In this document: positions 1,305 through 61,984 of the stretch, one piece after another
Layout of the letters: each line of letters opens with the position of its first letter
Position numbering within the stretch: position 1 is the first letter of the stretch
The notes under the pieces: generated by a model
The model's input: the letters and a program-made list of their open reading frames with translations, nothing else
Told to the model about the DNA's origin: nothing
Database searches by the model: none
Made by a program: the position numbers and the translations under genes
Source: a virus
Lineage: Duplodnaviria; Caudoviricetes
Virus record (IMG/VR): IMGVR_UViG_3300035208_005676
Coordinates: 1-64,000 of that record
Length of the DNA stretch: 64,000 nucleotides
Direction: 5' to 3' (one strand)

Positions 1305-1873
1305 TTCTTCTCCTGTCGGCGCATGGCGCGGGTGAGATCACTTGTTAGGGCGCAGTGGGCAACGGCAGCAGCGTCGCAGGCGTGCTCGACGAGGTCAGTC
1401 CCGCCGCGGGGGCCGAGCGGCCAGAGCGCGGCCAGCTCGGGATACCGGCTTTCCAGGGCAGCTTGCACGCCGCCTTTCGTAGCAGCAGCTCGGCCGGTGA
1501 CGATCCGCTTCAGATCCTTCGGGGCGACCTCGACGATCGGCAGATCGGCTGTTGCGGCGAAGCCTACCACGACTCCCCAGGCCGCGCCCACCTTGATTGC
1601 AGAGGCCGCGTGCCGTGGATGGCTGGCTTCCTCGGCAGCCAGGAGTACGTCCGCGAGAGAGAACGCGGCGAGCTTCGTCTCGATGATCTCGGCCAGGGCA
1701 CTGGCCAGCTCGCGGAGCCGGCGGGTGTTGTCGCTGGCCGCGCGCACCTCTCGCTTGTGCGTGGTTTTTTCCGTTACTACTGTACCGACTGCGGCGAAAC
1801 GCGTTTCGCTGTCGTGAAGCAGGATGGCCCAACCCAAATTGGCAAAGCCGGGGTCGATTCCCAGGATGATCAT
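1301..1873 (-). CDS. ruvC: Holliday junction resolvase RuvC
   Basis: ILGIDPGFANLGWA, AAEE, KRIVTGRAAATK, EHACDAAAVA motifs. Confidence 0.92.
   Translation of the reverse strand: MIILGIDPGFANLGWAILLHDSETRFAAVGTVVTEKTTHKREVRAASDNTRRLRELASALAEIIETKLAAFSLADVLLAAEEASHPRHAASAIKVGAAWGVVVGFAATADLPIVEVAPKDLKRIVTGRAAATKGGVQAALESRYPELAALWPLGPRGGTDLVEHACDAAAVAHCALTSDLTRAMRRQEKK
1794..1809. repeat. 16-bp palindrome GCGAAACGCGTTTCGC, copy 1 (in ruvC)
   Basis: exact match. Confidence 0.95.
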
Positions 1874-1876
1874 GAT

Positions 1877-2200
1877 TTAGCTCTCCAGGGGGGCGAAGGT
1901 CAAGGTCCCGTCTTTTTCGATTGTGGCGAAGCCCACGTCAGTAAAACCCGCGTGGGTCCAGCCCAAAGCGCGCATTCGCTCTGCGACAAGCGCGGCGACC
2001 TCTTCCTGTGCCTGCTGCATGTGTAACTGGTCTCGGCGTATCTGCCGCAGCGCCAGGACGAGGGGAAACAACTCCTCTCGGGGGTTTATCATTGACCCGC
2101 CGGAATCCTGAATACGTTGGAGCGTGTCTTTGATCTTTAGTCGCTGCTCTTTCGTAAAACAGGGCTCCAGGTTTGCCATGACGACGTCAACCAAGCTCAC
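1877..2200 (-). CDS. hypothetical protein
   Basis: Operon-packed ORF. GTG start just after the helicase stop. Confidence 0.6.
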   Translation of the reverse strand: MSLVDVVMANLEPCFTKEQRLKIKDTLQRIQDSGGSMINPREELFPLVLALRQIRRDQLHMQQAQEEVAALVAERMRALGWTHAGFTDVGFATIEKDGTLTFAPLES

Positions 2201-2201
2201 G

Positions 2202-3491
2202 TCAACCCCCCAGAAGAGCAGCCAGCTCCCCGCCGCCGACGAAGAAAAGACGATCCTTGGCCCGGGTAACCGCGGTGTAAAGCCAGCGGTGGGCCTCAGT
2301 CTCATCCATAACCCGCAGCAGAGTGTCCGGGGCATATACGCCCACGGTCGGCCACTCCGAGCCCTGGGCCTTGTGGCAGGTGAGCGCGTAGCCGTAGTCC
2401 ACCAGGATGGGAAGCACTCCTGACTCCCGCTTGATCTTCTGTGCCCGCGCTGGCCAGCTCAGGCCGTCCTGCTGCTGCTCGGCCGTCTGGAGGAGCAAGC
2501 TGCACTCCTGCGCGGCGGTGTCCAGTGGGGATCGAATTGTGGCCGCGTAGGTCGTGCCGCTGTGCCACCGCTGCGCGGACCCGAGGCCCAACAGATCGAC
2601 CAAGTCGCCGTTGCAGAGGTTAGCTTCCCGATGGTTGTGCGTGACGACGAGCCGCTCGCCAGGCTCGAAGGGTCTGGCCGGTGAATAATCCCGTTGTTTC
2701 CGCGCGGCCGTATTCAACTCATGCCGATCCTGGTTCCGCCAGGTGAGCACCTGAAAGTCAGGTACCCGCATCCAATCCTCGGCCTTGTCGCGGTTGTCAC
2801 GGACGATCGTCACCTTCTGCCAGTCGGCCGGCGGCGGAGCAGTCGACGAGCGCAGCGCGGTGGCCAGCGCGATGATCGGGGAACCGGCCTGTTGGCGGAC
2901 AACCTCGGTCAGGGAGCAGCGCTCCGCGCTCAGTTGGTCCATCAAGTCCTCGTCGAAGATGCTCTCCGCCCCGTACTTCTCCTTCTCTGCTGCCGAGAGT
3001 ACCGGCGGGAGCTGGAAGGAATCCCCGATGGCAACGATCGATCGCTGCCCCAGGGTCGGCGTGACCAGATCGTACAGGTCGCTCAGGACTGCTGGCGAGA
3101 TCATGCTGGACTCGTCGAGGAGCAGCGCAAAGCGAGCCGGGAGATCCTCAATGGTCCGCAGCCGGAAGCCCATGAGGTTTCCGAGGCGGTCGACCACGGG
3201 GACGTAGAGGAAAGAATGGATCGTCCGGGCGCAGCGGACCCCCAGCTCTCGAAGCCGAGCTGCGGCCCGGCCGGTGGGACAGGCGACCACGAAGTCCTCG
3301 TCGGCCCGCTGGCCGCTGTCCAGCAGGGATTCGACGATCGCGGCGAGCAGGACGCTCTTCCCGGTGCCGGCGTAGCCGCGAATGACCAGGATCCCGCCGG
3401 TGTAGAGGATGCGCGTGGCCAGGGCTGCGGCCCGGGTCTGCCCTGCAGTGAAGTCCAGTCCCTCAGGAGCGACGACAGCGACGCGCTTCAC
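2202..3491 (-). CDS. SF1B helicase, Dda/RecD-like
   Basis: GYAGTGKS, PTGRAA, DESSM, GDSFQLPPV, YALTCHKAQGSEW, YTAVTRA. Confidence 0.92.
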   Translation of the reverse strand: MKRVAVVAPEGLDFTAGQTRAAALATRILYTGGILVIRGYAGTGKSVLLAAIVESLLDSGQRADEDFVVACPTGRAAARLRELGVRCARTIHSFLYVPVVDRLGNLMGFRLRTIEDLPARFALLLDESSMISPAVLSDLYDLVTPTLGQRSIVAIGDSFQLPPVLSAAEKEKYGAESIFDEDLMDQLSAERCSLTEVVRQQAGSPIIALATALRSSTAPPPADWQKVTIVRDNRDKAEDWMRVPDFQVLTWRNQDRHELNTAARKQRDYSPARPFEPGERLVVTHNHREANLCNGDLVDLLGLGSAQRWHSGTTYAATIRSPLDTAAQECSLLLQTAEQQQDGLSWPARAQKIKRESGVLPILVDYGYALTCHKAQGSEWPTVGVYAPDTLLRVMDETEAHRWLYTAVTRAKDRLFFVGGGELAALLGG

Positions 3492-5641
3492 GACGCAACC
3501 TCCAGGCGGGACACGCCGGCCGTGGCCGCAATCGCGATCCGCTGCGGAAAGAACGCCTGAAACTCCGGGTCGTGGGTGGCCAAGAAGACCGTGCCGAGAT
3601 CTTTCGCCACCTCCTGCACCAGGCGCACCGCCTGCTCCGCTCCCAGGGAGTCGACGTGGGTCAGGGGCTCGTCGAGCACCAGGAGGTCGAGCCCCCCGTG
3701 CAGGCCGGCGGTCACGCTGCGCAGAGCGAGCAGCTCGACGAGATCCGCCCGTCGCTGCCAGCCTCCGGAGCAGCCCGCGTAGGTGCCGGATCCGTGGTCC
3801 AGCTCGACGACGGCCGCGAACTTGTCCCGCGACTCCCCGCTTTTCAGCTGGGTCTCCGTGTCGAAGCGCACGGTCAGCCGCCCATCGGAGAGCGCGTGCG
3901 CGTACCGCCGGGCTGCTCTATTCAATGCCGGAAGGATCTCGTCGAGGAGCAGCGAGCGGATCCCGGCCGGGCCGAAGCCATCGACCCAGAAGCGGAGCAG
4001 GTTGGCTTCGCCGGTCAGCTTCTGCGTGCCGATCTCGGCGTTGTCTTCCTGCGTGCGCAGCTCCAGGGCGCGCTTTTCGATCCCGGCCAGGGAGACGGTG
4101 TAGGGGTTGACGGCCGTCTCCTGCGCAACCGCGCGTGCGGTCGTGTCCGCCAGCTCCTTGACAAGGGCCTCCCGGGTCTGCCGGCTCTCCCGGGAGACGG
4201 TCAAGACCACGGTCAACCGCATTTCCAGGGAGCGGATGGCTAGCGCTAGTGGCGCGTCGGTCAGCTTGGCCAAAGTGTCTTCCTGCTCCCGCAGCTCCCC
4301 TTCCAGCGGGACACAGGCTCGCTTCGCCTCGGTCGTCTCGACCACGCCTTCCGCCAGCCGATGCTCGGTCTCGTCGATCCGTGCAACCAGAGCCTCCTGG
4401 GTGGTGACGAGCGTGGCCTTACGGGCCTCCAGCCGCTCGATCTGCTGGTCCAGCGCATCGGCGGCTCGCTCCTTGCGAGCCAGGGCGGCCTGGCGGTCCT
4501 CGCGGAGCTTCGCGAGCAGCGTCGTGTCGGTCAGCCCGTGCTCGGCGGCCTTTTCCAGGTCCACCTTGCAGGTGGGGCAGTGGTGGGTGACCTCTTCCCC
4601 GAGGGCTTCGATCTCGTCGAGCAAGGGGTCGACCTGATTGAGCAGGCCCGACAGGGTGCAGCCGATCTGCTCCACCTCCGCGCTCAGCTGCTCCCGCTGC
4701 CGCAGAAGATACTGCAGCGCGCTCCGGGTCTCCGCGGCGGCCGTATTTTTGGCAAACAGGGTGGTCTGCGCCTCGGACAGGGCGGCGCGGGCGCGCTGCG
4801 CGGCCTGCTGCAGCCCCTCGCGGAAAGCGTCCAGCTCCGCCCGCTTTGCGTCCAGCTCTGCCCGGATGATCTGGGGATCCTCGGCCGCGGCGTCTCCGAG
4901 ATCGTCCAGGGTTGCCTGGACTCGCCCGGCCTGCTGCCGGAGTCGGGTCGCCTCCTGCACCCGCCGCTGCTCCCACTCGGTCTGCGCGGTTGCGGTGCTC
5001 GCCAGCTCGCCCTGGACAGCAGCGGTCAACCGGACAAGGTTCGTCCGCTGCACCTGGAGCGCGCCCAGCTCTGCCTCGACGACACGCAGCTGCTCCGCGC
5101 CCCGGTCCCGAGCTTTGACGAACCGGTCCAGCTGCAGCATTTCGTCCAGGACGGCCTTGCGCTGCGCGTCGGTCCCGGTCGAAAACTGGTCCAGCTGGCC
5201 CTGGCCGAAGATGCAGGACGTACGGAAGGTCTCCCAGGACAGGCCGAGGAGCGTCTGGATCTGCGGGTCCAGCGTCTTCTCCGGCCCGCGCAGCGTCGGC
5301 TCGGTCCAGGATTCGCAGCAGATCTGGGCCAGATTCTTGAACTTCTTGTGCTTCCGATGCCGGGTGACCGACACCGCGCCCAAGGTCGGATGGTCCAGAA
5401 AGACGGTCACAGAGCAATCGCCAGTCTTGCCCGTCCGCTCCGGATCGTGGACCACCTCGTCTCCGCGCAGCCCGCGGATCGTCCTCCCGAACAGGCACCA
5501 GGACACGGCCTCCGAGACGGCCGCGCTCTTACCAGCCCCGTTCGGGCCGAGCACCAGGACCACGCCGCGAGCGTCGCAGTCGAGTTCGACCGACTGCCAG
5601 CTCAGGAAGTTGCGGATCTCCAGGCCGAGTACGCGGATCAT
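3488..5641 (-). CDS. sbcC: SbcC/Rad50-like ATPase (gp46-like)
   Basis: Start MIRVLGLEIRNFLS; GPNGAGKS; FGQG Q-loop; coiled coil with CPTC zinc hook; SGG signature; LDEP; THD. Confidence 0.92.
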   Translation of the reverse strand: MIRVLGLEIRNFLSWQSVELDCDARGVVLVLGPNGAGKSAAVSEAVSWCLFGRTIRGLRGDEVVHDPERTGKTGDCSVTVFLDHPTLGAVSVTRHRKHKKFKNLAQICCESWTEPTLRGPEKTLDPQIQTLLGLSWETFRTSCIFGQGQLDQFSTGTDAQRKAVLDEMLQLDRFVKARDRGAEQLRVVEAELGALQVQRTNLVRLTAAVQGELASTATAQTEWEQRRVQEATRLRQQAGRVQATLDDLGDAAAEDPQIIRAELDAKRAELDAFREGLQQAAQRARAALSEAQTTLFAKNTAAAETRSALQYLLRQREQLSAEVEQIGCTLSGLLNQVDPLLDEIEALGEEVTHHCPTCKVDLEKAAEHGLTDTTLLAKLREDRQAALARKERAADALDQQIERLEARKATLVTTQEALVARIDETEHRLAEGVVETTEAKRACVPLEGELREQEDTLAKLTDAPLALAIRSLEMRLTVVLTVSRESRQTREALVKELADTTARAVAQETAVNPYTVSLAGIEKRALELRTQEDNAEIGTQKLTGEANLLRFWVDGFGPAGIRSLLLDEILPALNRAARRYAHALSDGRLTVRFDTETQLKSGESRDKFAAVVELDHGSGTYAGCSGGWQRRADLVELLALRSVTAGLHGGLDLLVLDEPLTHVDSLGAEQAVRLVQEVAKDLGTVFLATHDPEFQAFFPQRIAIAATAGVSRLEVAS

Positions 5642-6753: not shown

Positions 6754-7358
6754 AGCTCACCTCGGAGGAAGTTTTCCAGCTCCAGGAGATCATCGTCTCC
6801 CTGGGTGTTGACCAGCCAGCGCTTCTGCAGCGCTTTGGCGACGGTCATGACCAGATCGACGAGGCCCTGCTGCGTGGTGACGGGGGCTGCCGATTCTTCC
6901 TGCCGCTTCTCCCACGGAGCCTTGATCTCACCCCAGGCTTCGTCTTCGACGTCGGCGCTGTCCGAAAGCAGATCGGCCCAGGTTGCGCGCAGCTCCTCGT
7001 CCCCGGCGCGGGAGGAAAGAAGATCCGTGAGATCGTCGGTCATCGCGTCGAGCGCTTCCGCGGCAGCTTCGGCCTTGGCCTCGCGGGTGACCTTCCCCTC
7101 CAGGGCTTCCTCCAGCTTCCCAGCCAGCTTTTCGATCAGCGCGTCGACAGAGGGGGCGTCGACCGCTTCCCGGGCCGTATCCCAGCGGTCTTCGATCTTC
7201 TCCAAGAGACGCTTGAAGCTATTGTCCAGGGCCGTCCGGACGCTCTCCTCGACCAACCCTGCCACGTCCTCGGAGGCAGCGTCGGTGCGCTCCACAAGGG
7301 AGTCGCAGAGATCGTCGTGACGGATCAGATCGTACTTCAGCGACGAGATCCAGCTCAT
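6750..7358 (-). CDS. hypothetical acidic protein
   Basis: AGGAGGAG RBS, coupled to sbcD. Confidence 0.7.
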   Translation of the reverse strand: MSWISSLKYDLIRHDDLCDSLVERTDAASEDVAGLVEESVRTALDNSFKRLLEKIEDRWDTAREAVDAPSVDALIEKLAGKLEEALEGKVTREAKAEAAAEALDAMTDDLTDLLSSRAGDEELRATWADLLSDSADVEDEAWGEIKAPWEKRQEESAAPVTTQQGLVDLVMTVAKALQKRWLVNTQGDDDLLELENFLRGEL

Positions 7359-7375
7359 GTTCTCCTCCTGGTCAA

Positions 7376-7409
7376 CCCTGGCCGGCGAAACGCGTTTCGC
7401 CGGCCAGGG
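7376..7409. repeat. 34-bp perfect intergenic palindrome containing copy 2 of the 16-bp motif (7385-7400)
   Basis: CCCTGGCCGGCGAAACGCGTTTCGCCGGCCAGGG. Confidence 0.95.
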
Positions 7410-7423
7410 AAGATCTCGCGCTG

Positions 7424-10958: not shown

Positions 10959-10987
10959 TTGACATCTTGCTAGAGAGTCACTAGGCT
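10959..10987 (+). promoter_or_regulatory. sigma70-type promoter of the rightward replication operon
   Basis: TTGACA-17-TAGGCT in the divergent intergenic region; near-copy at 29722. Confidence 0.7.
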
Positions 10988-11015: not shown

Positions 11016-11031
11016 GCGAAACGCGTTTCGC
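11016..11031. repeat. 16-bp palindrome copy 3 (divergent intergenic region)
   Basis: exact match. Confidence 0.95.
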
Positions 11032-12101: not shown

Positions 12102-12117
12102 GCGAAACGCGTTTCGC
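12102..12117. repeat. 16-bp palindrome copy 4 (in AT/pyrimidine-rich tract)
   Basis: exact match. Confidence 0.95.
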
Positions 12118-18710: not shown

Positions 18711-21392
18711 TTGGTGACGGTTGATCTCTGCCGAGCGCGGCCCGAGTGCCTGAAGTGCGGCCTCTGGCAGGAGGGGTGCCAGCGGCCGATGATCCACGGC
18801 CGCGGCAGTGATCATCCCGCGGTCATGTTCATTGGGCGCGATCCAGGGTACGAGGAAGACCAGATCGGACAGGTGTTTGTCGGCCCCTCTGGCTACCTGC
18901 TCGACCTGGGTTTGGCCAGCTACCAGATCGCCGAGGAGCTGGTCTATCGGACTAACATCGTCCGTTGTCGTCCGTTGGGCAACAAGCTACTCCAGGAGGC
19001 GAAACGCGTTTCGTGCTGCTCCGCCTTTCTCCTGGAAGAGATAACCCGGTTGCAGCCGCGGATTCTTGTTCCCCTGGGTGGGGTTGCTTGCGCAGCCCTG
19101 ACCGGCAAGGGGGCGATCCGGGAGATGCACGGACGCGCGCTGGAGCAAGATGGCCGGATCGTCCTGCCCATGTATCACCCTTCGGCGGTGCTCCACGATC
19201 CGTCGCTGCAGCCGGTCTTCGACCGGGACTTCGCCCTGCTGCGCAAGGTGCTGGTCTACGGGAAGGTGGACCCCGACCCGATCGACGATGGTGTCCTGAC
19301 CGACATCGGGGAGGTTCGGGCAGTCTTCGACGAGATCTTCCGGCGCGGCTACGTTGCCTTCGACTACGAAACCAATACCCTGAAGCCCTGGGAGCATCCC
19401 AGCCCGCGGATCGGGCTGCTCTCACTGTCGCTCGGGTCACACCGGGCGCGGGCGCTTCCTCTCGACCCGTGGCAGAGCCCCTGGGAATCGCCCTGGACGG
19501 TCGAACAACGGGCCGAGCTGGCTGTCCTGATCCGGCGGATGTTGACCGACCCGAAGCTCGTCCGGGAGGCGCACAACGCCCAGTACGAGCACCTGATGAC
19601 TGCCTGGTGTTTCGGGTTCGAGATGGGACTGACACAGGACAGTATGCTGGCCCATGCGCAGCTTGACGAGAACGCGGTTCACAACCTGGACGATCTCGCC
19701 TGGCGCTTCACGGATCTCGGCGGCTACAAGGAGAAGTTTCGCGACGAGCTGCCGGATCCCGACAACTTCCTCTCCGCGCCGCTTGACCGGCTGGGCTGGT
19801 ACGGCTGCCGGGACGTCGTGGTGACCGAGCGGGTGGGAGCAGCGGTGCGGGCTCAGCTCACCCCGGAGCAGCTGACCATCCTGCGGGACGTGCAAGAGCC
19901 GCTGATCCCTGTGCTGGCTGGGCTGGTCCGGGTGGGGAAGAAGGTCGACCTCGACGCGGTGAAGTGGTTGGACGCCGAGTGGACGGCTCTGGCGGATGGG
20001 ATCGAGGTGGAGCTGCGGGCCTGGCCCGAGGTGGCAGCCGCGGAGCAGGTGCTCGCGGTGCAGCGAGCAGACGCGGACGCTGCCCGAATGATGTTGGAGC
20101 TGCGCGACCTCCAGGCCGATTCGGAGAAGGCCAAGAAGACGGCCCGGCAGAAGGCGATTGCCTGGCGGCTGGAGGAGGTCGCGGCCATCAAGGCGCGGGA
20201 TCCCGCTGTTCTGGAGGTCTACCGGGAGCCCTTCAATTTCCGCAGCGACCCGCAACTCCGGGTGCTCTTCCTGGACCCAGCCTGCCTGGCCTACCCCTAT
20301 ACCCGGTTCACGACCGAGACGGGGGAGCCGAGTGTCGGGAAGGACGCGCTGGTCGTCTGGGGGGAGCATGACGAGCGGCCGCGGTTGTACCGTCGCTACC
20401 GGCGGTTGCGGACTATCCATTCTAGCTTCATTGCGCCGATGTACGAGTATCTGGCCAAGTCTTTGGATGGTTGTGTGCATGCTGGGTACAACCAGCATAT
20501 TGCACGGACTCACCGGCTGAGTAGCTCGGATCCCAACGAGCAGAATAGGCCCCGGGATGATACCTGTGCGGTGCTTGGCGCTCCACCCATCCAGGATGCG
20601 ATGTATTGCTCCCGTTTCTCGGGCGGGGAGGTTGTCAAGGCGGACTATTCGCAGCTGGAGCTGCGGGTGCTCGCGGTGGCCAGCGTGGATCTGGCGTTGC
20701 TTGCCGCGTACGAGAAGGGGCGGGATCTGCATGCGACGACGGCTCTGGGCTTTTTCGACCACCTCCGCGGGGGCGTCTCCGACGAGGTGTTCGCAGCGGC
20801 CCTGGAGAAGGCCAAGCAGCGGGAGGCTTGGAAGACAGAGCGCGGGATCGGGAAGCGGTGCAACTTCCTGACCTCCTACGGTGGGTCGGCGCAGCGGCTC
20901 CAGGCGCTCCTGGCGGAGCAGGGGCTCTTCCTCCCCTTGGAGGACTGCGAGCGGTACGTCGAGCTGTTCTTCGAGCTGTACCCGGGGGTGCGGCGCTACA
21001 TGCGTTGGGTCTCGGATCAGGCGGTGGCCGCGGGCGGGGTCGTGGTCTGCGCGGACGGGTCGCGGCGGCACCTGCCAGCCCTGATCCACGGGGAGCCGGG
21101 GGAGCGGGCGCACGCGGAGCGGGAGGCAGGGAACGTCACGATCCAGTGGCCGGCGGCGAAGCTGACGATGATCGCGTTGTCGTTGCTCGGTCAGCTGCTC
21201 CGGGAAGAGAAGATGGAGTCGCTGATCGTCGGGACCATTCACGACTCGATCCTGGTTGACTCGCCGGCCGAGGAGGCCGAGGAGGTGGCGGAGCTGGTCA
21301 AGGGGGCGATGGAGCTGGCCGCGGAAGACCCGCGGTGGATGCCGGCCGGGTGGTGGAACCCCCGGGTGCCGGTGATCGCGGACGTGGGGTGA
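18711..21392 (+). CDS. family A DNA polymerase with N-terminal family-4 UDG-like domain and 3'-5' exonuclease
   Basis: CLKCGL..GRDPG..NIVRCRP..YHPS (UDG); FDYET, HNAQYE, YGCRD (exonuclease); [27 protein letters not shown] (Phe at the F762-equivalent), HDS. Confidence 0.93.
18999..19014. repeat. palindrome copy 5 (GCGAAACGCGTTTCGT, in DNA polymerase)
   Basis: 15/16 match. Confidence 0.9.
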
Positions 21393-32149: not shown

Positions 32150-32464
32150 ATGGTAGCTCGGGATGTGAGCTTTTTCTCCGAGATCTCCGCCGAAGCGAAA
32201 CGCGTTTCGTCCCCCGTCCGGGAGGAGTGGGAGCGGTCGAAGGTGCGCCAGGCTGCGGCCGAGCTGCGGCCGGCTCCGAAGGTGAAGCGGCAGCGGAAGA
32301 CCCGGGCGGCCGTGGTGGCGGTGACGAAGGAAGAGCAGACGATCGCCCGCGCCGAGTGGGCCGTGCAGCAGACCAAGGAAGCGAAGCGGCCGGCGCAACC
32401 CGCGGCGCAGCCCGCGGGGCCGGTGCGGAAGACGTCCCGCTGGGCCGCGATGGAGCTGGACTGA
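32150..32464 (+). CDS. hypothetical protein
   Basis: GAGGAGG RBS. Confidence 0.6.
   Translation: MVARDVSFFSEISAEAKRVSSPVREEWERSKVRQAAAELRPAPKVKRQRKTRAAVVAVTKEEQTIARAEWAVQQTKEAKRPAQPAAQPAGPVRKTSRWAAMELD
32195..32210. repeat. palindrome copy 6 (GCGAAACGCGTTTCGT)
   Basis: 15/16 match. Confidence 0.9.
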
Positions 32465-38300: not shown

Positions 38301-40649
38301 CTGGAGAGCGCGCAGTCGCTCCTGGAGCTGGTCTCGATTGACGTCCCACCGCGTGACCCGCTGGCCAAGGGCAAGAAGGCGCAGATCGGGGAGGTCCACC
38401 AGTGGCAGGACGGCCCCGCGCGGAAGGTGGCCGAAGGGAAGTGGGAAGAATTGCCCGCAGAGGGCCCCAGGACGCCCCAGAAGCGAGCGGCTCCTGCCCA
38501 CCTGCCCGGAGAGGCCGAGCGGCGGTGGGCCCGGCTGGAGGCGATCCGGAAGGCCCTTCCAGCCATCCGGCAACAGGTGGATCTCAACCTGCGGGAGAAG
38601 GGGCTGTCGAAGCAGCGGATCTCCGCGGGCGTGGTCTTCCTGCTCGACCGGTACGGGATGCGCGTCGGCAAGGAGTCGCACGCGGCGGCGACCGGGCACT
38701 TCGGCGCGTGCAGCTTGCGGCGGAAGCACGCAACCCCCGAGGGCGACGGGATCCGGCTGTCCTTCCCGGGCAAGGCCGGGGTGGCCTGGAGCCTGCTGGT
38801 TGACGACCCGGCCGAGGTTGCATTGATCCGCCGGTGCCTGGCCCAGAAGGGGACGAAGGAAGACCCGCTGTTCCGGTTCAACGATGCCGGCGCGCTCCGG
38901 CAGATCTCTGACGACCAGATCAACGCCTACCTGAAACAGATCGGCGGGGAGACGGTGATCGCGCACTCACTGCGCACCTACCGGGCAAACCAGCTGCTCG
39001 TTGAGGAGCTGGACAAGGCCGGGAATCCACCGGCAGCGAAGCGGCCCGGGGTTGTGCGACGAGCAATCGCGGCGGTGGCCAAGCAGCTGTTTCACGGCCC
39101 GGCGGCCTGCCAGAAGAGCTACCTGCACCCGGCGATTCTGGCGGCCTTCCTGGGGGGTCAGCAAATGAGCCTGGACCTGGCCAAGGGGGCGGTGGGGCCG
39201 GACGGGTACACGCCCGAGGAGCGACGGTTCCACGCGGTGCTGGACGCGATTGCGGCTCACTGGCGGGGCAAGCTGGCCAAGGGTAAGAAGGTCCCGATCG
39301 GCACCATCCACACCTGGGCCGACGAGGCGCACGCGCCGGCTTGTAGCTTGGCCGCTGCGGCCGTGGCCGGCGTGCTCGGGTTGCCGGTGGTTGAAGAAGG
39401 CTCTGGTCCTGACGAGGTGCGAAACGCGTTTCGCTTCGCCCTGGAAAAGGGGCGGGGTTTCCCGATCGGCACCGTGCGCAACTGGCGCACCGGCCCGGCA
39501 AAGAAGGTGGCCGAGGACAAGTGGGCGCAGTTGTCTCTACCGGGTCCACAGCAGGCCAGGGAAGTGTCAGCAATGCCGGCTCCGGTCGTGGCGGGCGTGA
39601 CGTGGGAGAACCTGCCGGAGAAGCTGCAGGAGGGGCTGCGGCAGTTGTTTCCGGAGCATCCTCCGGAAGACGATCCGGAGGGCTGGGGGCAGCGTGTCCA
39701 GGCGGCCAAGGATGCGATCTGGGCGGTGCTGAAGCAGTACGAGCACGAGTCGGCCGGGGAGGTTGTGCAGCGGTGGTTTGGGCTCGCAGCAGCCGCGGAC
39801 ACCTTCGGGAACGGGCTGAAGCTCTGGCAGCCGGTGGCGATCAAGCTGCAGGAGTTGCGGGACGGGCGCGGAGGGGGGGTCTCTGTCACGGGCGCGCGGG
39901 GTGACGCGGTGATTCGTCTGTTGGGCGACGCGTTCCCCGAGTGGACGCGCACGCTGGCTCCGGTGCGGTTGCACTTGCAGCCGTTGGGCAAGACGGTAGC
40001 GGAGCGGGACTATTCGTGGGAGCAGCTGGTCAAGGGGTCAAGGATCCTGGAGGGTGTGCCGGAGAAGCAGAAGCAGCTGATCATGGAGTCGGAAGGGGTC
40101 TGCAAGCGGATGCCCGACAACGGCTCCACCATCGTCTACCAGTCCGCCAAGTGGCGGGCGCTGGAGGGGGTGACCGGGGCGAAGTACCGGCGCGTTTTGT
40201 TCCACGAATATGGGCACGCAATCGACAACGCGCTCGGGCAGGCTCCTGGGCATTTGTGGCCGGAGATGGTCGCTTTGGTGGGTAAGGATCAGTGGGCCGC
40301 CCGGGAGTTCATTTCTTCCTACGGTGCGGATAATGGATCCCACGAGGATTTTGCGGAGGCCGTGGCCTGGCAGCGATCGGGGCTGTTGTTTGCCGCTCCG
40401 ACAAAGGCGTCGACCATTGAGCGCTTTCTCTCCTCTCCCGAGGCCGCCCGCGATCTGATGTGGGGCGCGCTCCAGCGGCGTGCGGAGAAGGCGGCAGCCT
40501 CGCTGCAGCAGTTCATTCCGCCCAAGCCCGCGGCGGCAGCCAAGCCGACCATGCCGGCCTACCTGATCCATCCCGACCCCGCGGTGACCGCCGCTCGCCA
40601 GGCGGATTGGGAGAAGGTGGCCGCTTGGCAGCAGGAGGGTCTGCGGTGA
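35307..40649 (+). CDS. polyvalent protein: C5-cytosine MTase + ART-like + kinase-like + topoisomerase IB + zincin peptidase
   Basis: FSGAGG/GFPCQD/ENV/RDRIF/GNAV; LGKGDDGIAF..VVKV..FDVG; RVG..FPGKAG..LRTY..H..KSY; HEYGH..SSYG..EDFAE. Confidence 0.85.
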   Translation: MREYPPGTVRQWRTGPARKEADGSWVPLPAGGKYPQGKGLRILSLFSGAGGLDEGLRRALPDAKHVGFAEPDEAARAVLKDHWPGVPVHWDARELADRAETGKDIGRPNLVVAGFPCQDVSQAGKGTGMAGSRTSLYRHALRIIRATKPEIVLFENVPGLRTNGLALVLADLHAAGYDATWDHVPAAAVGAPSQRDRIFLVAHRPGVELHFGGAAPERHGVHWRQTWKEAPVLSADEEAGAEALRRQGGLPVTWKGTGSKEILRLAGNAVAPPVGHYLGEILAGATEGKEQAAAAKPWPAELPRAGVLRGGGVEERKPAHPLGALRNTAQVGDVVLIQDPAPYNPPGEDAYDGASAVDEAYLGQVVTIQGRGSEDQVDVETPNGDVVPLPWTWLARLPTPTATEGKGGIPASLPGFPGQEFAARKRGGQLRHMVTGSVNHDFAAWAQGFPQGWFDAVQAEQPREKEGEQLPLIKAGYPVGSVRLFRAAPDTNCDDSGTTSFAAREGDAVAYLDNPGFGGSKLYTVVISPVLRETLDLIEGEAPSWLAGAIRSHGAAGKVWALTASEVVRAALAEHGIRWVRFTDDFPVGCETWALVGWEDGSTSDVEDEMEEIKTGGEAVSSGQRHSSWPPTGPGWQAIPKGKHGGFRRRAADGDWEYTYPSEPSTLQKGKAYPPGTIRQWRGGPAQKQADGKWKRLEPTAKVTAKGHPKIFRYPTETVYDVTPAGPGLVRLTREGTQYGPTMPEASVKHFVNDIAGRVELPPSGNPDIDAVTSGQAKLLGKGDDGIAFQVGNKVVKVSTTVPYHPENPGHRSPQEAIEMLRRQSETGNKLADLGVPGIQRSEYIVHGDKGFQIKSWVEIPEKLSQDQLDQLQESILAMHRAGYSLNDEPQGGLGPDGRMVQFDVGKAAPTKESSSRWDNSEEDDLSRLRYLYQRNDVPFVRLDRTDGLRLVDKAQEMLDRDKPPLRMIGMILQDAAEKIVKEAPRMGSHWAGKAQAELESAQSLLELVSIDVPPRDPLAKGKKAQIGEVHQWQDGPARKVAEGKWEELPAEGPRTPQKRAAPAHLPGEAERRWARLEAIRKALPAIRQQVDLNLREKGLSKQRISAGVVFLLDRYGMRVGKESHAAATGHFGACSLRRKHATPEGDGIRLSFPGKAGVAWSLLVDDPAEVALIRRCLAQKGTKEDPLFRFNDAGALRQISDDQINAYLKQIGGETVIAHSLRTYRANQLLVEELDKAGNPPAAKRPGVVRRAIAAVAKQLFHGPAACQKSYLHPAILAAFLGGQQMSLDLAKGAVGPDGYTPEERRFHAVLDAIAAHWRGKLAKGKKVPIGTIHTWADEAHAPACSLAAAAVAGVLGLPVVEEGSGPDEVRNAFRFALEKGRGFPIGTVRNWRTGPAKKVAEDKWAQLSLPGPQQAREVSAMPAPVVAGVTWENLPEKLQEGLRQLFPEHPPEDDPEGWGQRVQAAKDAIWAVLKQYEHESAGEVVQRWFGLAAAADTFGNGLKLWQPVAIKLQELRDGRGGGVSVTGARGDAVIRLLGDAFPEWTRTLAPVRLHLQPLGKTVAERDYSWEQLVKGSRILEGVPEKQKQLIMESEGVCKRMPDNGSTIVYQSAKWRALEGVTGAKYRRVLFHEYGHAIDNALGQAPGHLWPEMVALVGKDQWAAREFISSYGADNGSHEDFAEAVAWQRSGLLFAAPTKASTIERFLSSPEAARDLMWGALQRRAEKAAASLQQFIPPKPAAAAKPTMPAYLIHPDPAVTAARQADWEKVAAWQQEGLR
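39419..39434. repeat. 16-bp palindrome copy 7
   Basis: exact match. Confidence 0.95.
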
Positions 40650-51633: not shown

Positions 51634-54192
51634 ATGGGCGAGCGTATCCCCGGCGGGCTGGCAGCGGGCAAGAAGCCTGAGGACTTCGATCCGGAGCAGC
51701 TCGCGGCCGGCGTCAGGGTCGAGGCCGAGCACACCACGGACTCGGCAGTCGCTCGCGAGATCGCGATGGACCATCTGACCGAGGACCCGGACTACTACCG
51801 GAAGTTGCGGCGGATGGAAAAGGCGCTGCGGGACGTCGGGGCCTGGCTGACGCTCGTCGAGCTGGTCCCGGAGGCCGATCTGACGAAAGCGGATCGGCAG
51901 GCCGCGCAGCACAAGTACATCATGCGCCAGCCGAGCGGCAAACCGAAGCCGAAGTGGCGCTACTGGTACAAGATGCCGGGCGGCAAGGGGGTCGTCACCC
52001 ACGACCGGCTGGTCGAAGGGGCGCGCTTCGCCGGGGCGCACAACGGCGCGGCAGGCCACTGGGAGGTGCTTTCCTCCGGAGACGACGGGGTGCTCGCTCG
52101 CCACTCCAGCGGCGCGCACGTCAAGCTGTCCCACGAGGAGTTTGCGGCCGGCGTCAACGCGCAGCACGCGGGAGCGCAGGGCGAGGCCCGGACAGAGCGG
52201 CGGCGCGAGATCATGGAGTCGTTGAAGGTGCTCCACGAGGGTGGCGGCGGCAAGGGGCAGGCGAAACGCGTTTCGCACCTGATCGAGGAGGCTGTGCGGC
52301 TCGGCTGGGTCTCGGAAAAAGAGGCGCAGCTCTACCGCAACCGGCTGCAGCCGGCGGAAGACAAGGCCGCGGCAGCCGATCCGGGAGCGAAGCTGAAAGC
52401 CGCGCTGGCCAGCGCGGCCCCGGAGCACCGGGACGCGATCCTGGCGCACATGCGCAGCCTGGAAGAGGAGCGGCAGAAGCTCGAAACGGCGGGCGCGGAG
52501 AAGCCGGCCGCCGCTCCCGCTCCGGAGCCCAAGGGCGGAGAGAAGGACAGCGGCCTCGGGCTGCGCGGCAAGTCCGACGACATGAAAACCGCGGATGCGA
52601 CGGGCAAGGGGCAGGACCAGCCCTTCCGCTACCGCCTGGTGCCGCTGGCGGACATGATCCCCTCGCACAACCCGGAGGACCAATTCCGCGAGCACCCACA
52701 GTACCCGAAGGGGGTGCAGGAGCGGCACTATGACCAGAACAAGGAGTCACAGCTGACGATCCGGCAGCGGGCCGGCGAGCTGGAGCCGCGCTTCCTGGTC
52801 AATACCAACCCGGACGCAGCCAACGGCCCGCCAATCATCGTCCCGAACGGCGTTGTCCTGGGTGGCAACAGCCGCACCATGACGTTGCAGCTCGCCTACC
52901 ACGACCATCCGGAGCAGGCGCAGAAGTACCGCGACTACATCAAGGAGCACGCGGCAACCTTCGGCTTCTCGCCCAAAGACGTCGACGCGATCGAGGATCC
53001 GGTGCTGGTCCGCGAGGTCGACGACCCCGGGACGCAGAAGGAACGGGCGTTGCTGGGCCGGCGCTACAACGAATCGTTCACTCGGGCGCTGGCTCCGCAA
53101 GAGGAGCAGGTGACGCTGGGCAAGCAGATCTCCGCGGGCACGCTGGGCAAGTTGACCGACTACACGGACATGCTGGCCGAGGCCAAGGAAGAGCCGACCT
53201 TCGAGGCGTTCCTGAGGTCCAACCGGTCGCGGCGGTTCGTCGAGTCGCTGGTCAAGGACGGGGTGATCGACGAGCGCAACCGGGATCGCTACTTGCTCCC
53301 GGCCAAGTCGGCGCACGCGGGGCTGCTCAACGAAGTCGGGCGGGTGTTCGCTTCCCAGGTGCTCATGGGCAGCATCATCGACGACGTCGACGACCTCGAC
53401 GACATCGGGAAGACCTACCGGGACCGGATCAGCTCGCAGCTGCCGGTGATCCTGGCCGCGAGCGCGAGCAACCCGAAGTTCGACCTCTCCCGGGCGCTGA
53501 AAACCGCGGTCGGCGTGCTCGCGCAGCAGGAGCGGGAAGGCAAGGCGCACCCCTGGCTGGTCCTGAAGCAGGGTGACATCGCCCGGAAGGACAAGGAGAC
53601 GGGGGCCGAGGTGGTGACCGGCGCGGGGGACTACTCCCACCCGGTCTACAAGGATTCGCTGGCGCAAGCCATGGTGGCCGTCTTCTCCCGGGCCTCGCAG
53701 AAGGCCACGGGTCCGGGGTTCCGGAAGTTTGCCGATCTGGCGACCGCGCCCTCGTCGGAGGGCGGGATGTTCGCGGACGGGCCGACTGACGAGGAGCGGG
53801 CCCTGGCCGGCATGCGCAGCGCGTTTGGCTTCACGACGGCCGATCCGCTGCGCGAGGTCGAGAACCTCGAAAACGAGCGGCTGGGCGCGAACGCGCAGGC
53901 GACGGCTGAGCGGGGCAAGGCCGCTGTGAAGCAGAAGATGACCGAGCGCGGGATCAAGACGCAGGGCGAGGTTGCGCCCAAGAAGGTCCGCAAGCCGCGG
54001 CTGGTAAAGCCCGAGCCCGAGCCGATTCCTGAGCCCGTGCGCAAGCCGCGCAAGGCAAAGGCAGCCCCGGCTCCCGAGCCTGAGCCTGAGCCCAAGCCGA
54101 CGCCGATCCGGCGGGGGCGGGGCCCGGACAAGCAACCGCGCAGGCGGCGGGAGCCGAAGATCGTTGTCACGGGGCGGAGGAAGGCGGCATGA
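51634..54192 (+). CDS. polyvalent protein: DUF5661-like N-terminus + ddrB-like ParB domain
   Basis: QLAAGVRVEAEHT..AREIAMDHLTEDPDYYRKL; YRLV..DMIPSH..QERHY..GPPII..VLGGNSR. Confidence 0.75.
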   Translation: MGERIPGGLAAGKKPEDFDPEQLAAGVRVEAEHTTDSAVAREIAMDHLTEDPDYYRKLRRMEKALRDVGAWLTLVELVPEADLTKADRQAAQHKYIMRQPSGKPKPKWRYWYKMPGGKGVVTHDRLVEGARFAGAHNGAAGHWEVLSSGDDGVLARHSSGAHVKLSHEEFAAGVNAQHAGAQGEARTERRREIMESLKVLHEGGGGKGQAKRVSHLIEEAVRLGWVSEKEAQLYRNRLQPAEDKAAAADPGAKLKAALASAAPEHRDAILAHMRSLEEERQKLETAGAEKPAAAPAPEPKGGEKDSGLGLRGKSDDMKTADATGKGQDQPFRYRLVPLADMIPSHNPEDQFREHPQYPKGVQERHYDQNKESQLTIRQRAGELEPRFLVNTNPDAANGPPIIVPNGVVLGGNSRTMTLQLAYHDHPEQAQKYRDYIKEHAATFGFSPKDVDAIEDPVLVREVDDPGTQKERALLGRRYNESFTRALAPQEEQVTLGKQISAGTLGKLTDYTDMLAEAKEEPTFEAFLRSNRSRRFVESLVKDGVIDERNRDRYLLPAKSAHAGLLNEVGRVFASQVLMGSIIDDVDDLDDIGKTYRDRISSQLPVILAASASNPKFDLSRALKTAVGVLAQQEREGKAHPWLVLKQGDIARKDKETGAEVVTGAGDYSHPVYKDSLAQAMVAVFSRASQKATGPGFRKFADLATAPSSEGGMFADGPTDEERALAGMRSAFGFTTADPLREVENLENERLGANAQATAERGKAAVKQKMTERGIKTQGEVAPKKVRKPRLVKPEPEPIPEPVRKPRKAKAAPAPEPEPEPKPTPIRRGRGPDKQPRRRREPKIVVTGRRKAA
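52261..52276. repeat. 16-bp palindrome copy 8
   Basis: exact match. Confidence 0.95.
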
Positions 54193-59358: not shown

Positions 59359-59737
59359 TTTTGCCACCGCGGCGGGCTGCTCCGAGACGTTGACCCCTGT
59401 TGCTCTGCCAGTCGTGGCCGACGAAGATCTCCGCGTCGAGCCAATGGAGGGGGTGATCTCCCCCGACCCGGCTGCCTGGACAACCCCCTTTCACGGCCAG
59501 CTTCTTTCCGATGCAGCTCTGGCGCTTTTGGAGGCGAAAGCCCGGGGCGGAGAGCTGCGCGAAGACGAGGCAGAGCGGCTGCGGGGGGTCGCCTGTCGGC
59601 TGCTCGGAGAAGTAGAGCGAGATCTGGTGCGACAACGGGCCGAGCTGGGGACGGCTCGGCGTAGTCTGGGGATGTTGGCGGCGGGGTCGGCTGGGGCGGT
59701 GCTCCTGCTTGCGATCCTCGCGGTTGCTGGGAGGTAG
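59267..59737 (+). CDS. lipoprotein with C-terminal TM (spanin-like)
   Basis: LLAG|C lipobox; C-terminal hydrophobic helix. Confidence 0.55.
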   Translation: MLRKLLLVGIALVLLAGCSTTSGARTAPGSSFATAAGCSETLTPVALPVVADEDLRVEPMEGVISPDPAAWTTPFHGQLLSDAALALLEAKARGGELREDEAERLRGVACRLLGEVERDLVRQRAELGTARRSLGMLAAGSAGAVLLLAILAVAGR

Positions 59738-59741
59738 CGGC

Positions 59742-60218
59742 ATGGGATGGATCGAAGCACACTGGCCCCTTTTCGTGGTCGCGGCCTCGCTGGCCATTCC
59801 TCTGATTCTGGCGGGGATGATGCTCGTCCGCGTGACCGGGCACGGCAACGCGACGAGCACCGGCCGGCAGAGCATCGGGGAGCAGCACATTGCCCTGCAG
59901 AACGGACGGCAGGAATGCCCGCCGGTGGTCTACACCACGATGGGCAGCCTGGCAGCGGCTGTTCAAGAGCTGCAGCGGCAGGTGGCCGAGGGCTTCCGTG
60001 AGGTGCGGGTTGACCAGAAAGAGACGCGGATGCAGCAGGCGCAGATCGCGGCCGATCTTCGGGTGGCCTCCGAGGGCTTCCGGGTGGCCGCCGAGGGCTT
60101 CCACGCGTTCTCCCGGCTGATGGAGCGATTCGACATCGAGGAAGAGACGATCCGCGTGCTCGACCGGGAGGCAGACGCGCTCGGCCGGGCGGGTGAGCGG
60201 GAGAGGGCGCACGGGTGA
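59742..60218 (+). CDS. membrane-anchored coiled-coil protein
   Basis: GGGAGG RBS; N-terminal TM. Confidence 0.6.
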   Translation: MGWIEAHWPLFVVAASLAIPLILAGMMLVRVTGHGNATSTGRQSIGEQHIALQNGRQECPPVVYTTMGSLAAAVQELQRQVAEGFREVRVDQKETRMQQAQIAADLRVASEGFRVAAEGFHAFSRLMERFDIEEETIRVLDREADALGRAGERERAHG

Positions 60219-61984
60219 TCCCGATCCGCCCGAATCGGGAGCAGCTGCGGCGGCACGTCGAGCGAGCTTCAATTACCCCCGAGGTGGCCAAGGCGATCCG
60301 GGAGATCGTCCAGCTGCACCATGAAGCTCTTGTCGAGGCGGTCTGCGGCGGGAGCATGCTCCCCGAGGCCGTGACGGCTCAGATCCGGGCTGCAGGGATC
60401 CCGCGCTGGGCCGGTCCTTCTGTCGTCGAGTCGGGGGTCGACCTGGGGATCCTCACCGCGGGCCTAAAAGACCCCTTCCAGGACGAAGTTGACCCTGACG
60501 AGCTGGCCCGGCGGATCCTGCACCAGCGGGAGTTGCCGCTGTCCTACGCAGAGGCCGTGGCTGAGCAGGAGGCCAAAGAGAAAGCGGCCATTTACTGCCG
60601 CGGCCTCGGAAACACCGTCGACAAGGAGACGCAATCGTTGATCGTCGAGACGACGGTCGAGAACCGCGCGCAGCTGGTTGACGCGATCCGCGACGAGACG
60701 GCCGAAGCAATCCACTGGCGCGAAACGCGTTTCGCAATGAAGAGTCGGCTCGGTCGGGCAACTGGCGAGTGGCACCGGGATCTGCACCGGATCGCCGAGA
60801 CGGAGCTGCACAATGCGATGCAGGCCGGGCGCGGGGCGGCAATCGAGCGCGACCACGGGGAGGGCGCGCAGGTAGCGAAGCGACCCAATCCGTCTGCCTG
60901 TCCTGCGTGTTTGAGCATGTACCTGGATGGTGACGGCAACCCGCGGATCTTCCGGCTGTCAGAGATCAAGAGCGCGAGCAACGCCCGGGATCCCCAGACG
61001 GGCAAGCCGCGAAAGCGCGCGGACTGGGTTCCCGCCTTGGAGGCGCTACACCCCCACTGTTTCCTGCCCGGGGCAGTTGTCCAGGGCCGGATTCAGCTGG
61101 CGACCCGGGCGCTGTACCACGGGGAAGCCGTTGAAATACTTACTGCTCGTGGGCACAAGCTCACCGTCACGCCGAATCACCCCGTACCGACCGCGGACGG
61201 CCGCTGGCTCCCGGCGGGAAAGGTCGCGCAGGGCGATGATCTGCTCTGCTACCTTGGCGGGCAGGAAGGGGATGGTGCGGCCCGAGTCGCGCCTCGTCCG
61301 GACCCCCGGCACGAACAGCAGAACCCAGCCCGTATCGAGGAGGTATTTGACGCGTTTGCGAAAGGCGGTCGGTGTGCGCGATTGCATGCCTCCCCGATGG
61401 ACTTCCACGGCGATGCGATCGGCCTGGAGGGCGACGTCGATGTTGTATGGCCCGCAAGCGTGCTGTTGCGAGACGGCCTCTCCCCGGTCACGGAGTGCGG
61501 TAGCGATCTCGTCTTCCCCGAAGCCGACGTTGCGGCCGTAGCCGGTGGTCTGTCGCTCAGTTGCGCGGCGGGCTCGCAGCTCGGGAGACTCGGTTTGTCC
61601 TCGGCGGCTGGCCCAGGCGCTACCGAGCTGGCGCTCGACAGCAGTCCGATCCATGCGCAGGTGCTCCCACTTGATGTACTCCTGCTCGGACTGGCTTCGG
61701 AGCTGGACACCTGCGTCGAGGAGTTTGGCCTGCAGGGTGTTCCTTGCGACGCCGGCTTCGCCGGCAAGCTGCTTGATCGATTCCCCGGAGCGGTAGCGGC
61801 GGACAAAGTCGTTCAGGTTCGGAAGTTCAATTTTTCTGGTCATGTGTACGATCTCCAGTCGGAAACTGGATGGATCGTAGCAGACGGGGTTGTAACAAGC
61901 AACTGCCGCTGCCAGCTGATCTACGTTCCCGAGGGCTGGGGCTTCGACGAAGACGGCCGGCTGGTTCCCCCGAGGCGCAGGTGA
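60215..61984 (+). CDS. MuF/SPP1 gp7-like head morphogenesis protein with intein
   Basis: RIAETELHNA, ACPAC, and HPH|intein|CRC reconstituting the HPxCRC motif. Confidence 0.88.
   Translation: MIPIRPNREQLRRHVERASITPEVAKAIREIVQLHHEALVEAVCGGSMLPEAVTAQIRAAGIPRWAGPSVVESGVDLGILTAGLKDPFQDEVDPDELARRILHQRELPLSYAEAVAEQEAKEKAAIYCRGLGNTVDKETQSLIVETTVENRAQLVDAIRDETAEAIHWRETRFAMKSRLGRATGEWHRDLHRIAETELHNAMQAGRGAAIERDHGEGAQVAKRPNPSACPACLSMYLDGDGNPRIFRLSEIKSASNARDPQTGKPRKRADWVPALEALHPHCFLPGAVVQGRIQLATRALYHGEAVEILTARGHKLTVTPNHPVPTADGRWLPAGKVAQGDDLLCYLGGQEGDGAARVAPRPDPRHEQQNPARIEEVFDAFAKGGRCARLHASPMDFHGDAIGLEGDVDVVWPASVLLRDGLSPVTECGSDLVFPEADVAAVAGGLSLSCAAGSQLGRLGLSSAAGPGATELALDSSPIHAQVLPLDVLLLGLASELDTCVEEFGLQGVPCDAGFAGKLLDRFPGAVAADKVVQVRKFNFSGHVYDLQSETGWIVADGVVTSNCRCQLIYVPEGWGFDEDGRLVPPRRR
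60720..60735. repeat. 16-bp palindrome copy 9
   Basis: exact match. Confidence 0.95.
61046..61843 (-). CDS. antisense HTH + Vsr/DUF559-like endonuclease nested in the intein
   Basis: GGAGA SD before ATG; YRSGESIKQLAGEAGVARNTL (HTH); E.EI...QHACGPYNIDVA....IAVEVH...R..YL...GWVLLFV. Confidence 0.8.
   Translation of the reverse strand: MTRKIELPNLNDFVRRYRSGESIKQLAGEAGVARNTLQAKLLDAGVQLRSQSEQEYIKWEHLRMDRTAVERQLGSAWASRRGQTESPELRARRATERQTTGYGRNVGFGEDEIATALRDRGEAVSQQHACGPYNIDVALQADRIAVEVHRGGMQSRTPTAFRKRVKYLLDTGWVLLFVPGVRTRRDSGRTIPFLPAKVAEQIIALRDLSRREPAAVRGRYGVIRRDGELVPTSSKYFNGFPVVQRPGRQLNPALDNCPGQETVGV
61058..61903 (+). mobile_element. 282-aa intein (Hint) with no recognisable sense-strand endonuclease
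   Basis: CFLPGAVV (block A), LTVTPNHP (block B), GHVYDLQS (block F), VVTSN|C (block G). Confidence 0.9.

Follow-up and report, generated by a model that had tools for sequence, protein, structure and literature searches.

A lineage-private 16-bp palindrome repeated exactly along a lytic-type phage genome, with a ParA-less ParB/KorB-like protein as its candidate binder

The stretch of DNA considered here (the window) comprises bases 1-64000 of the 103,540-bp IMG/VR virus record IMGVR_UViG_3300035208_005676, and belongs to a tailed phage (Caudoviricetes) denoted G000 in what follows. The subject is a 16-bp palindrome that is repeated, always exactly, along this genome, together with a gene at the left edge of the window whose product is probably a very divergent member of the ParB/KorB family. 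Genes were called by codon usage (99 called) and then analysed by Pfam scans, with PHROGs and Pfam between them covering about 90 of the 99. The Pfam matches reveal a leftward module (RuvC, PIF1-like helicase, SbcC/SbcD-like proteins and an SSB-like protein) and a rightward module (SNF2 helicase, DnaB-like helicase, primase, a uracil-DNA glycosylase-PolA fusion (UDG-PolA) and an intein-bearing RecA). Further right come terminase, giant polyvalent 'cargo' proteins, portal and MuF, after which there is a TnpB/Cas12-like gene beside a CRISPR array, and then capsid, baseplate J and amidase. The sequences of PolA and the major capsid protein show 28-31% identity to their counterparts in SPO1-like Bacillus phages, and the gene content suggests a lytic myovirus that is distantly SPO1-like. 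Promoter-like elements of the form TTGACA-17-TANNNT, together with DUF4190 and DUF6011 matches, hint at an actinobacterial host.

The record has 66.5% G+C and no terminal repeat, and is classed by CheckV as 100% complete. This is an overestimate, because a 99.99%-identical sister contig in ENA (L322) is the reverse complement of bases 1-10787 and then runs 5.3 kb past the left edge of the record (L322:10788-16094), bringing the genome to about 109 kb. The additional stretch is absent elsewhere in the record, and holds nine or ten small genes, one of them with a weak DUF932 match.

Copies were sought both as the exact 16-mer GCGAAACGCGTTTCGY and as its 14-bp core with up to two mismatches. The original prediction had listed nine copies of GCGAAACGCGTTTCG[C/T] in the window, and all nine are present and exact (Table 1), where dinucleotide shuffles give an expectation of 0.00. 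For the core with up to two mismatches the same shuffles give 0.26 copies against nine found, and all nine of these are perfect. In the full 103,540-bp record the exact copies number 13, variants with one or two mismatches are absent, and a 14th copy is found in the 5.3 kb beyond the left edge. The palindrome is the most repeated word of the genome, with the phage's own CRISPR repeats in second place. The base flanking the core is a purine in 26 of 26 half-sites (G in 21, A in 5), so that the site is better written as RCGAAACGCGTTTCGY. Beyond this purine there is no further conserved position outside the core, and no second motif accompanies the G000 copies.

As had been claimed, six of the window copies lie inside genes, leaving three that are intergenic, and the genic copies are read in three different frames; the peptides AKRVS and RETRFA were both recovered. 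Over the whole genome the coding copies are distributed over the three frames as 1, 5 and 3. Intergenic copies are nevertheless enriched (4 of 13, against a non-coding share of only 7.4% of the genome; p = 0.012). The proposal that copies are denser near parB and the strand switch holds only weakly, the first 19 kb having 5 of the 13 (p = 0.07). Read as they are in every frame, the palindromes are selected at the level of the DNA.

Table 1. Palindrome copies in the 64-kb window, with the two ParB-related genes and the promoter-like element beside copy 3.
Feature	Coordinates	Strand	Context
Palindrome, copy 1	1794..1809		In RuvC-like gene (minus strand, 1301-1873); start of the parB-like gene ~0.8 kb downstream
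Palindrome, copy 2	7385..7400		Intergenic, flanked by the SSB-like gene's stop codon and the next gene's ribosome-binding site
Palindrome, copy 3	11016..11031		Divergent control region; 5' leader of the first rightward gene, before its ribosome-binding site and ATG at 11073
Palindrome, copy 4	12102..12117		Intergenic, AT-rich; its end is 38 bp ahead of the SNF2 helicase start codon (ATG at 12154)
Palindrome, copy 5	18999..19014		Inside the UDG-PolA gene
Palindrome, copy 6	32195..32210		64 nt into a 110-aa gene without assigned function
Palindrome, copy 7	39419..39434		Inside the gene for the 1753-aa polyvalent protein (C5-methyltransferase + topoisomerase IB)
Palindrome, copy 8	52261..52276		Inside the DdrB-like gene, read AKRVS; PQRVA and PERVN in orthologues
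Palindrome, copy 9	60720..60735		Inside the MuF-like gene, read RETRFA; RETAQQ in orthologues
parB/korB-like gene, candidate binder	2..973	-	3' end cut by the window edge; G+C at third codon positions (GC3) 0.91
SigA-like promoter (TTGACA, 17 nt, TAGGCT)	10959..10987	+	Read from the sequence; not listed by the consensus promoter scan
Second ParB/Srx-fold protein, DdrB-type, 852 aa	51634..54192	+	Probably capsid cargo

Some of the sites lie at or close to promoter-like elements. Copy 3 is approximately 25-40 bp downstream of the promoter-like TTGACA-17-TAGGCT, a TTGAAA hexamer adjoins copy 4 on its 5' side, and a copy outside the window, at 66132, has a promoter-like element on either side, the two being divergent, and is upstream of their -35 hexamers by 22 and 30 bp. 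Copy 2 alone shows extended symmetry, forming the centre of a 34-bp perfect palindrome at 7376-7409 (DNA hairpin of -20.5 kcal/mol).

Capsid-based searches place G000 in a family of phages of about 100-110 kb, whose closest members are G001 (capsid 71% identical; 62.6 kb of data, about 65% of that genome) and G002. Searches of IMG/VR by other routes gave no close relative with PolA, and with the PIF1-like helicase only relatives of 24-39% identity. The nearest long relative is represented in SRR26784071 by contigs of 105 kb and 26 kb. Neither G001 nor G002 has the G000 palindrome, even at two mismatches, and in the rest of IMG/VR it occurs as 71 single copies, at a chance-like level. The word is therefore private to its lineage. 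These relatives have a word of their own, GCGAAT-GGG-ATTCGC, with 18 exact copies of CGAAT-GGG-ATTCG in G001 and three in G002, besides a few degenerate copies that retain GCGAA...TTCGC. The outer arms GCGAA and TTCGC are common to the G000 and G001 words, while the inner A:T pair has become T:A and the centre has been replaced; the distance between half-sites is also shorter by one base in the G001 type (4 to 3 bp). In a more distant member, G004 (capsid identity 63%), TTCACCAC-GG-GTGGTGAA occurs five times. A 17-mer of the G001-type phages, AGGCGAATGGGATTCGC, was recovered from JGI metagenomes in at least 120 contigs, for the most part of soil and peat origin, which suggests that the sister lineage is widespread.

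The positions of the sites differ between G000 and G001, and the sites are found in variable segments of the proteins, where the encoded residues are altered relative to orthologues (RETRFA against RETAQQ, AKRVS against PQRVA). The spacing is more even than that of random points, most clearly in G001 (coefficient of variation 0.45, p = 0.0004; minimum gap 1444 bp, p = 0.00015) and also in G004 (p = 0.03) and G000 (p = 0.046). One position does appear to be kept. The contig L489, one of the metagenome contigs with the G001-type word, comes from the left arm of such a phage, with orthologues from SbcC to gene 10 that are 33-44% identical. In its equivalent divergent control region a copy of its own motif precedes TTGACA-17-TATGCT by 18 bp, so that each lineage has kept its own version of the word there.

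The asymmetric centre of the G001 word provides a clue as to the form in which it is read. It occurs as GGG in ten copies and as CCC in eight, although 56 of the 60 genes called in G001, including every gene that bears a copy, are on one strand. Such a mixture within a one-strand block of genes therefore favours a reader of duplex DNA that is indifferent to orientation, and disfavours a function at the RNA level.

The same observations bear on the proposal that the palindrome works as a single-stranded hairpin or a cruciform, recognised by the phage machinery for replication, recombination or nicking (primase, RuvC, SbcCD, RecA). The stems in G000, G001 and G004 are of 6-7 bp with loops of 3-4 nt and a similar stability of -5 to -6 kcal/mol, the A:T to T:A change between G000 and G001 preserves pairing, and one copy lies within the 34-bp perfect hairpin. 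Mixed orientation would serve both strands, and a full set of recombination and replication genes is encoded. Against this, it is the sequence, beyond mere pairing, that is invariant within each genome, variants in G001 and G002 break the pairing without compensation, and the loop is conserved both as GGG and as CCC. The stems are also short and weak, and no HUH or nickase gene was found. We consider a hairpin function decidedly unlikely.

Taken together, the sites have the build of operators for a symmetric reader protein, one that evolves in step with them. The phage encodes a candidate for this protein at the left edge of the window, as the original prediction had pointed out in noting a phage ParB nearby. 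Its full-length product in the sister assembly, P0376, has 419 aa. A six-frame search with HTH_ParB (PF17762) matches the left end of the window at E = 0.002, with 14.9 bits against a cut-off of 22.6, and generic helix-turn-helix (HTH) models match the same residues at E = 0.007-0.06. The translation contains LPLDRIEV, and a putative HTH lies around residues 165-200. The arginine box GxRRxxA is present in the putative N-domain as EDGFRRREALRRL (EDGFRRREA), as read by eye and not by a profile, and the ENLQR-like motif that bears on CTP binding and clamp closure is only partly kept (RNIISHMRK). The features of P0376 in the ESM Atlas give a score of 0.95 with 177 shared features, the ten best clusters all being ParB_N, HTH_ParB or KorB, and the corresponding structure has a template-modelling (TM) score of 0.74 (normalised by the model of the cluster) over residues 41-273. 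Because both the Atlas features and the structure place it in these clusters, P0376 is accepted as a probable, very divergent ParB/KorB-family protein.

P0376 is the only recognisable sequence-specific DNA-binding protein found in about 109 kb, and no other DNA-binding regulator appeared in the Pfam and PHROGs scans of about 90 of the 99 called genes, nor in the six-frame searches. This, together with the operator-like anatomy of the sites, leads to our preferred, if tentative, reading: the palindromes are predicted to be the cognate double-stranded DNA sites of the phage's own ParA-less ParB/KorB-like protein. The most serious competitor is a different phage-encoded dimeric protein, one with no recognisable family, to which the ParB-like gene would be unrelated and which would use the sites for docking genome-wide, as for the repeats of Cluster O mycobacteriophages. 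Most small proteins of the phage have no family match, and symmetry, exactness, private evolution and even spacing would suit any co-evolving dimer. The Cluster O repeats are anatomically alike, and three predicted DNA-binding proteins were named there, none of them assigned to the repeat (PMC4351075). However, no candidate for such a protein was found in G000, HTH_3 is absent in the six-frame search, and the small genes beside the intergenic sites, which have no matches in the PHROGs and Pfam scans, do not look like regulators. Such a binder is rather unlikely.

The original prediction regarded the palindromes as loading sites for the phage ParB, used for partition or organisation of an extrachromosomal genome. 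In its favour, a probable ParB-family protein is indeed encoded, and the palindromes behave like operators of that family, being perfect, scattered, selected as DNA and indifferent to orientation; partition is unsupported. Six-frame searches of the 103.5-kb record, in which control genomes were positive, found no ParA (AAA_31, PF13614), no tyrosine integrase, no resolvase-type recombinase and no HTH_3 (Cro/CI-type) protein. The search for parA beyond the left edge that had been suggested was also negative, there being none among the nine genes that lie there downstream of parB in L322, with the proviso that the assembled sequence may be short of the full genome by a few kb. Since neither ParA nor integrase, resolvase or Cro/CI-type HTH was found, and the genes are those expected of a lytic SPO1-like phage, partition and maintenance as a plasmid or prophage are unsupported. 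The alternative that had been offered, a genome-wide repressor or stoperator site, fails: the sites are symmetric, their counterparts in a relative are free of orientation, and no repressor or integrase was found. The stoperators of Cluster A phages do resemble the G000 sites in having many private copies in and between genes and, putatively in the case of G000, in co-evolving with a phage protein, but they are asymmetric, oriented with transcription and found in temperate phages that have an immunity repressor.

It is worth adding that the window encodes a second protein with a ParB/Srx fold, of the DdrB type. Its N-domain matches PF18763 with E = 1e-22, and the AlphaFold model, with pLDDT above 90 over residues 300-770, superimposes on residues 20-117 of B. 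subtilis ParB (Z 8.2, root-mean-square deviation 2.3 A, 95 residues). The alignments to B. subtilis ParB, C. crescentus ParB and Noc are all confined to their N-domains. When the following helical domain of 320 aa was folded alone (pLDDT 89), the best Z in the PDB was 4.4 and there was no ParB HTH. With only the N-domain matching ParB and the C-terminal domain matching nothing, the DdrB-type protein was rejected as the ParB of the original prediction.

A separate possibility is that this protein, which is probably packaged in the capsid and injected, uses the sites to mark or protect the incoming genome. The ParB/Srx N-domain itself is secure, from both PF18763 and the structural match, and the module is present in G000, G001, G002, G004, G006 and G013, which all possess iterated words of palindromic form, and absent from G005, G007, G014 and G016. 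On the other hand, the resemblance to ParB ends with the N-domain, and the module is a frequent building block of polyvalent proteins (10,139 matches), in which it is predicted to be a nucleoside triphosphate-regulated, largely sequence-nonspecific DNase (PMC5512222). It is very unlikely that the DdrB-type protein is the reader.

Six more distant relatives (G005, G006, G007, G013, G014 and G016) have no match to P0376 in tblastn. By CheckV five of these genomes are at least 91% complete and one is 87% complete; G007 is classed as a provirus. Iterated palindromes of at least 13 bp are absent from all six. The G000 word itself occurs in no relative, so that the refuting observation named in the original prediction, the site in relatives lacking this parB, was not made. 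A weak tblastn match to ParB at the metagenome locus L446 was rejected as a low-complexity open reading frame in the wrong frame.

Five of the six (G006, G013, G007, G016 and G014; L172-L182, L303-L320; capsid 35-39% identical) are rich in hyper-abundant short words, TCCRGA-based. TTCCGGAA has 155 copies in the 110 kb of G006, about 150 times expectation, and 37 in G013, TTCCAGAA/TTCTGGAA has 141 copies in G007, CGTCTGGA has 129 in G016, and GCTGGA words are abundant in G014. The words of G006 and G007 use all frames in genomes with genes all on one strand, and the asymmetric word of G007 is found in both orientations. The pattern resembles HIP1.

The HIP1 palindromes of cyanobacteria are linked to a methyltransferase, and a comparable mutational or repair drive, with no binding function, could in principle have accumulated the G000 word. 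The phage encodes several DNA methyltransferases, and the 8-mers of the distant relatives do reach 150 times expectation. However, a fully specified word of 14-16 bp far exceeds any methyltransferase or VSR context, there are only 13-14 copies, these force changes of amino acid, and the copies in G001 and G004 are more evenly spaced than chance would give. An origin of this kind is barely credible. As for the methyltransferase-bearing proteins as readers, the topoisomerase IB and C5-methyltransferase domains of the 1753-aa protein were rejected, since both are absent from the 62.6 kb of G001, which still has its motif.

The sites could also be targets of a host protein (a transcription factor, a nucleoid protein or a defence sensor) that the phage recruits or titrates. 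In favour of this, lineages with possibly different hosts have different words, and the promoter-like elements resemble host SigA-type promoters. However, among the matches listed for bacterial genomes taken one per species (185,579 species), the 16-mer appears as scattered singles at about the chance rate, and the only genome with eight copies among the matches listed has all of them in one repeated gene resembling that of an insertion sequence (IS). We consider a host factor highly improbable. The genome in question is the Planctomycetota metagenome-assembled genome OY970367.1 (6.5 Mb; L193, L197, L223, L234), in which the 14-mer occurs eight times, each time in the repeated, IS-like gene of about 515 aa; it was rejected as a host signal and is a coincidental carrier. 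With chance singles and this one genome as the bacterial matches listed, inference of the host from the motif was likewise abandoned.

Some further features of the window are recorded here. The polyvalent block at 33317-55421 encodes the 1753-aa protein with its C5-methyltransferase and topoisomerase IB domains, a 2451-aa DarB-like protein with an Eco57I-type methyltransferase and SNF2, and the 852-aa DdrB-like protein with DUF5661, and its domain content is strongly different even from that of G001. At 18714-21392 there is a family A DNA polymerase with an N-terminal domain of the uracil-DNA glycosylase superfamily, as in the corresponding region of SPO1-like relatives. The RecA gene (21389-23536) is split by an intein with a LAGLIDADG_2 endonuclease domain, and the relative in SRR26784071 has an uninterrupted RecA of 353 aa. 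The MuF-like gene (60215-61984) has a weak intein-splicing match; for the MuF orthologues of G002 and G003 the alignment is limited to about 270 residues, in keeping with an insertion in G000 and G001. At the right end of the window (62200-64000, with the gene extending to genome coordinate 64603) is the TnpB/Cas12-like protein, with a Cas12f1-like TNB domain (E = 3e-13); the gene adjoins the repeat array and has a homologue in G001 that is 42% identical.

Among known systems, the nearest mechanistic precedent for the proposed ParB/KorB-like protein and its sites is KorB on the IncP plasmid RK2, a plasmid of 60 kb with 12 O_B sites. In both cases a protein of the ParB family with an HTH (putative in G000) is accompanied by identical palindromes dispersed over the replicon, some beside promoters and some far from them; in G000 there are 13 + 1 exact copies, those at 11016, 12102 and 66132 being near promoter-like elements and the rest in genes or elsewhere. 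KorB is a sliding clamp, dependent on cytidine triphosphate, for which the palindromic O_B sites are the loading points, and it acts on promoters as far as 1.5 kb distant (PMC11790492). KorB also takes part in partition with the ParA-type IncC, and has the clamp-locking partners KorA and TrbA, whereas no ParA or KorA-like partner was found here. The sequence of O_B is unrelated to that of the G000 site, and the replicon in the present case is a lytic-type phage.

The nearest anatomical precedent is the 17-bp repeat of the Cluster O mycobacteriophages, TGTTCGG-N3-CCGAACA, which is both genic and intergenic, has no orientation bias, is absent from the host and other phages, and has no assigned binder (PMC4351075). 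The G000 family has the same invariant inverted arms around a short centre, with copies in and between genes, freedom of orientation and a private word. The differences are that the centre is variable in Cluster O and invariant in G000, that there are 34 copies in 70 kb there as against 14 in about 109 kb, and that the phage belongs to another family, in which there is a ParB-like candidate binder and relatives display turnover of the motif.

Dispersed centromere repeats read by a ParB-type protein are reportedly found in the phage-plasmid N15, as sopC bound by SopB, and there too inverted-repeat copies are scattered among lytic genes, with the ParB-type binder being putative in G000. N15 differs in having SopA (a ParA), a plasmid prophage and a use in partition, none of which is seen here. 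The chromosomal ParB-parS and Noc-NBS systems likewise have perfect palindromes of 14-16 bp in several near-identical copies, with a binder composed of a ParB N-domain and an HTH (both putative in G000). The half-site of parS shares GAAAC with G000, a pentamer on which the putative inside-out parS with its altered dimer geometry rests: as had been stated, the half-site matches GTGAAACA at 6 of 8 positions, with the halves in reversed order, and parS as such, TGTTNCACGTGAAACA, is not matched by the G000 site. Moreover, the G000 sites are not confined to an origin-proximal region, and no ParA was found.

We can now return to the reading of the palindromes as cognate sites of P0376. Several observations weigh against it. 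Six-frame searches with PF02195 (ParB_N) and TIGR00180 gave no match, a search of the PDB with the sequence of P0376 gave none, and the HTH_ParB score is under its curated cut-off. The contrast between relatives with and without ParB is essentially one of one clade against another, and the hyper-abundant short words of the ParB-less distant relatives imply that iterated words need not signify a ParB. The link between protein and site is circumstantial, and most of the small genes are orphans, so that another binder could hide among them. Finally, intergenic copies are not enriched in G001 (2 of 18), from which it follows that control of promoters is only part, and not the main part, of the role. 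Whatever probability is not taken up by this reading and its five rivals belongs to readings outside this set.

If P0376 is the binder, a dimer would bind each palindrome. The few copies beside strong SigA-like promoters probably modulate those promoters, and the many copies in genes, which are evenly spaced in two relatives, may be loading or docking points that give the protein access to the whole genome. Loading would resemble that of KorB at the O_B operators of RK2, or that of Noc at NBS sites, and the likely output would be transcription control or DNA organisation, genome-wide, during infection. Since there is neither a ParA nor a gene for lysogeny, plasmid partition is not the expected output. 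Protein and site would co-evolve, and this would explain how the relatives came to differ in the inner base pair, the centre and the spacing while their outer arms stayed the same. By analogy, then, the system resembles a genome-wide operator network of a plasmid more closely than a centromere for partition.

The most far-reaching form of this proposal is that a lytic-type phage uses a ParA-less, ParB/KorB-like clamp, whose loading points would be lineage-private palindromes set at regular intervals throughout the genome and embedded in its own genes. The clamp would serve in the timing of transcription, or in organising or shielding the DNA, with protein and site co-evolving fast enough for sister lineages to have altered the inner base of the half-site, the centre and the half-site spacing. 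As a complete statement this is on the unlikely side. ParB-like genes without ParA are common in phages, and most have no known DNA target or function. Here one genome contains both a candidate protein and a set of candidate sites that is complete and unambiguous, and the sister lineages are natural variants in specificity. If the link between the two fails, the sites remain a clean case of strong selection at the DNA level overriding protein sequence. If it holds, the logic of KorB, that is, to load at a palindrome and act at a distance, would extend from plasmids to lytic phages, and it would suggest a class of binder for the unexplained repeats of the Cluster O type.

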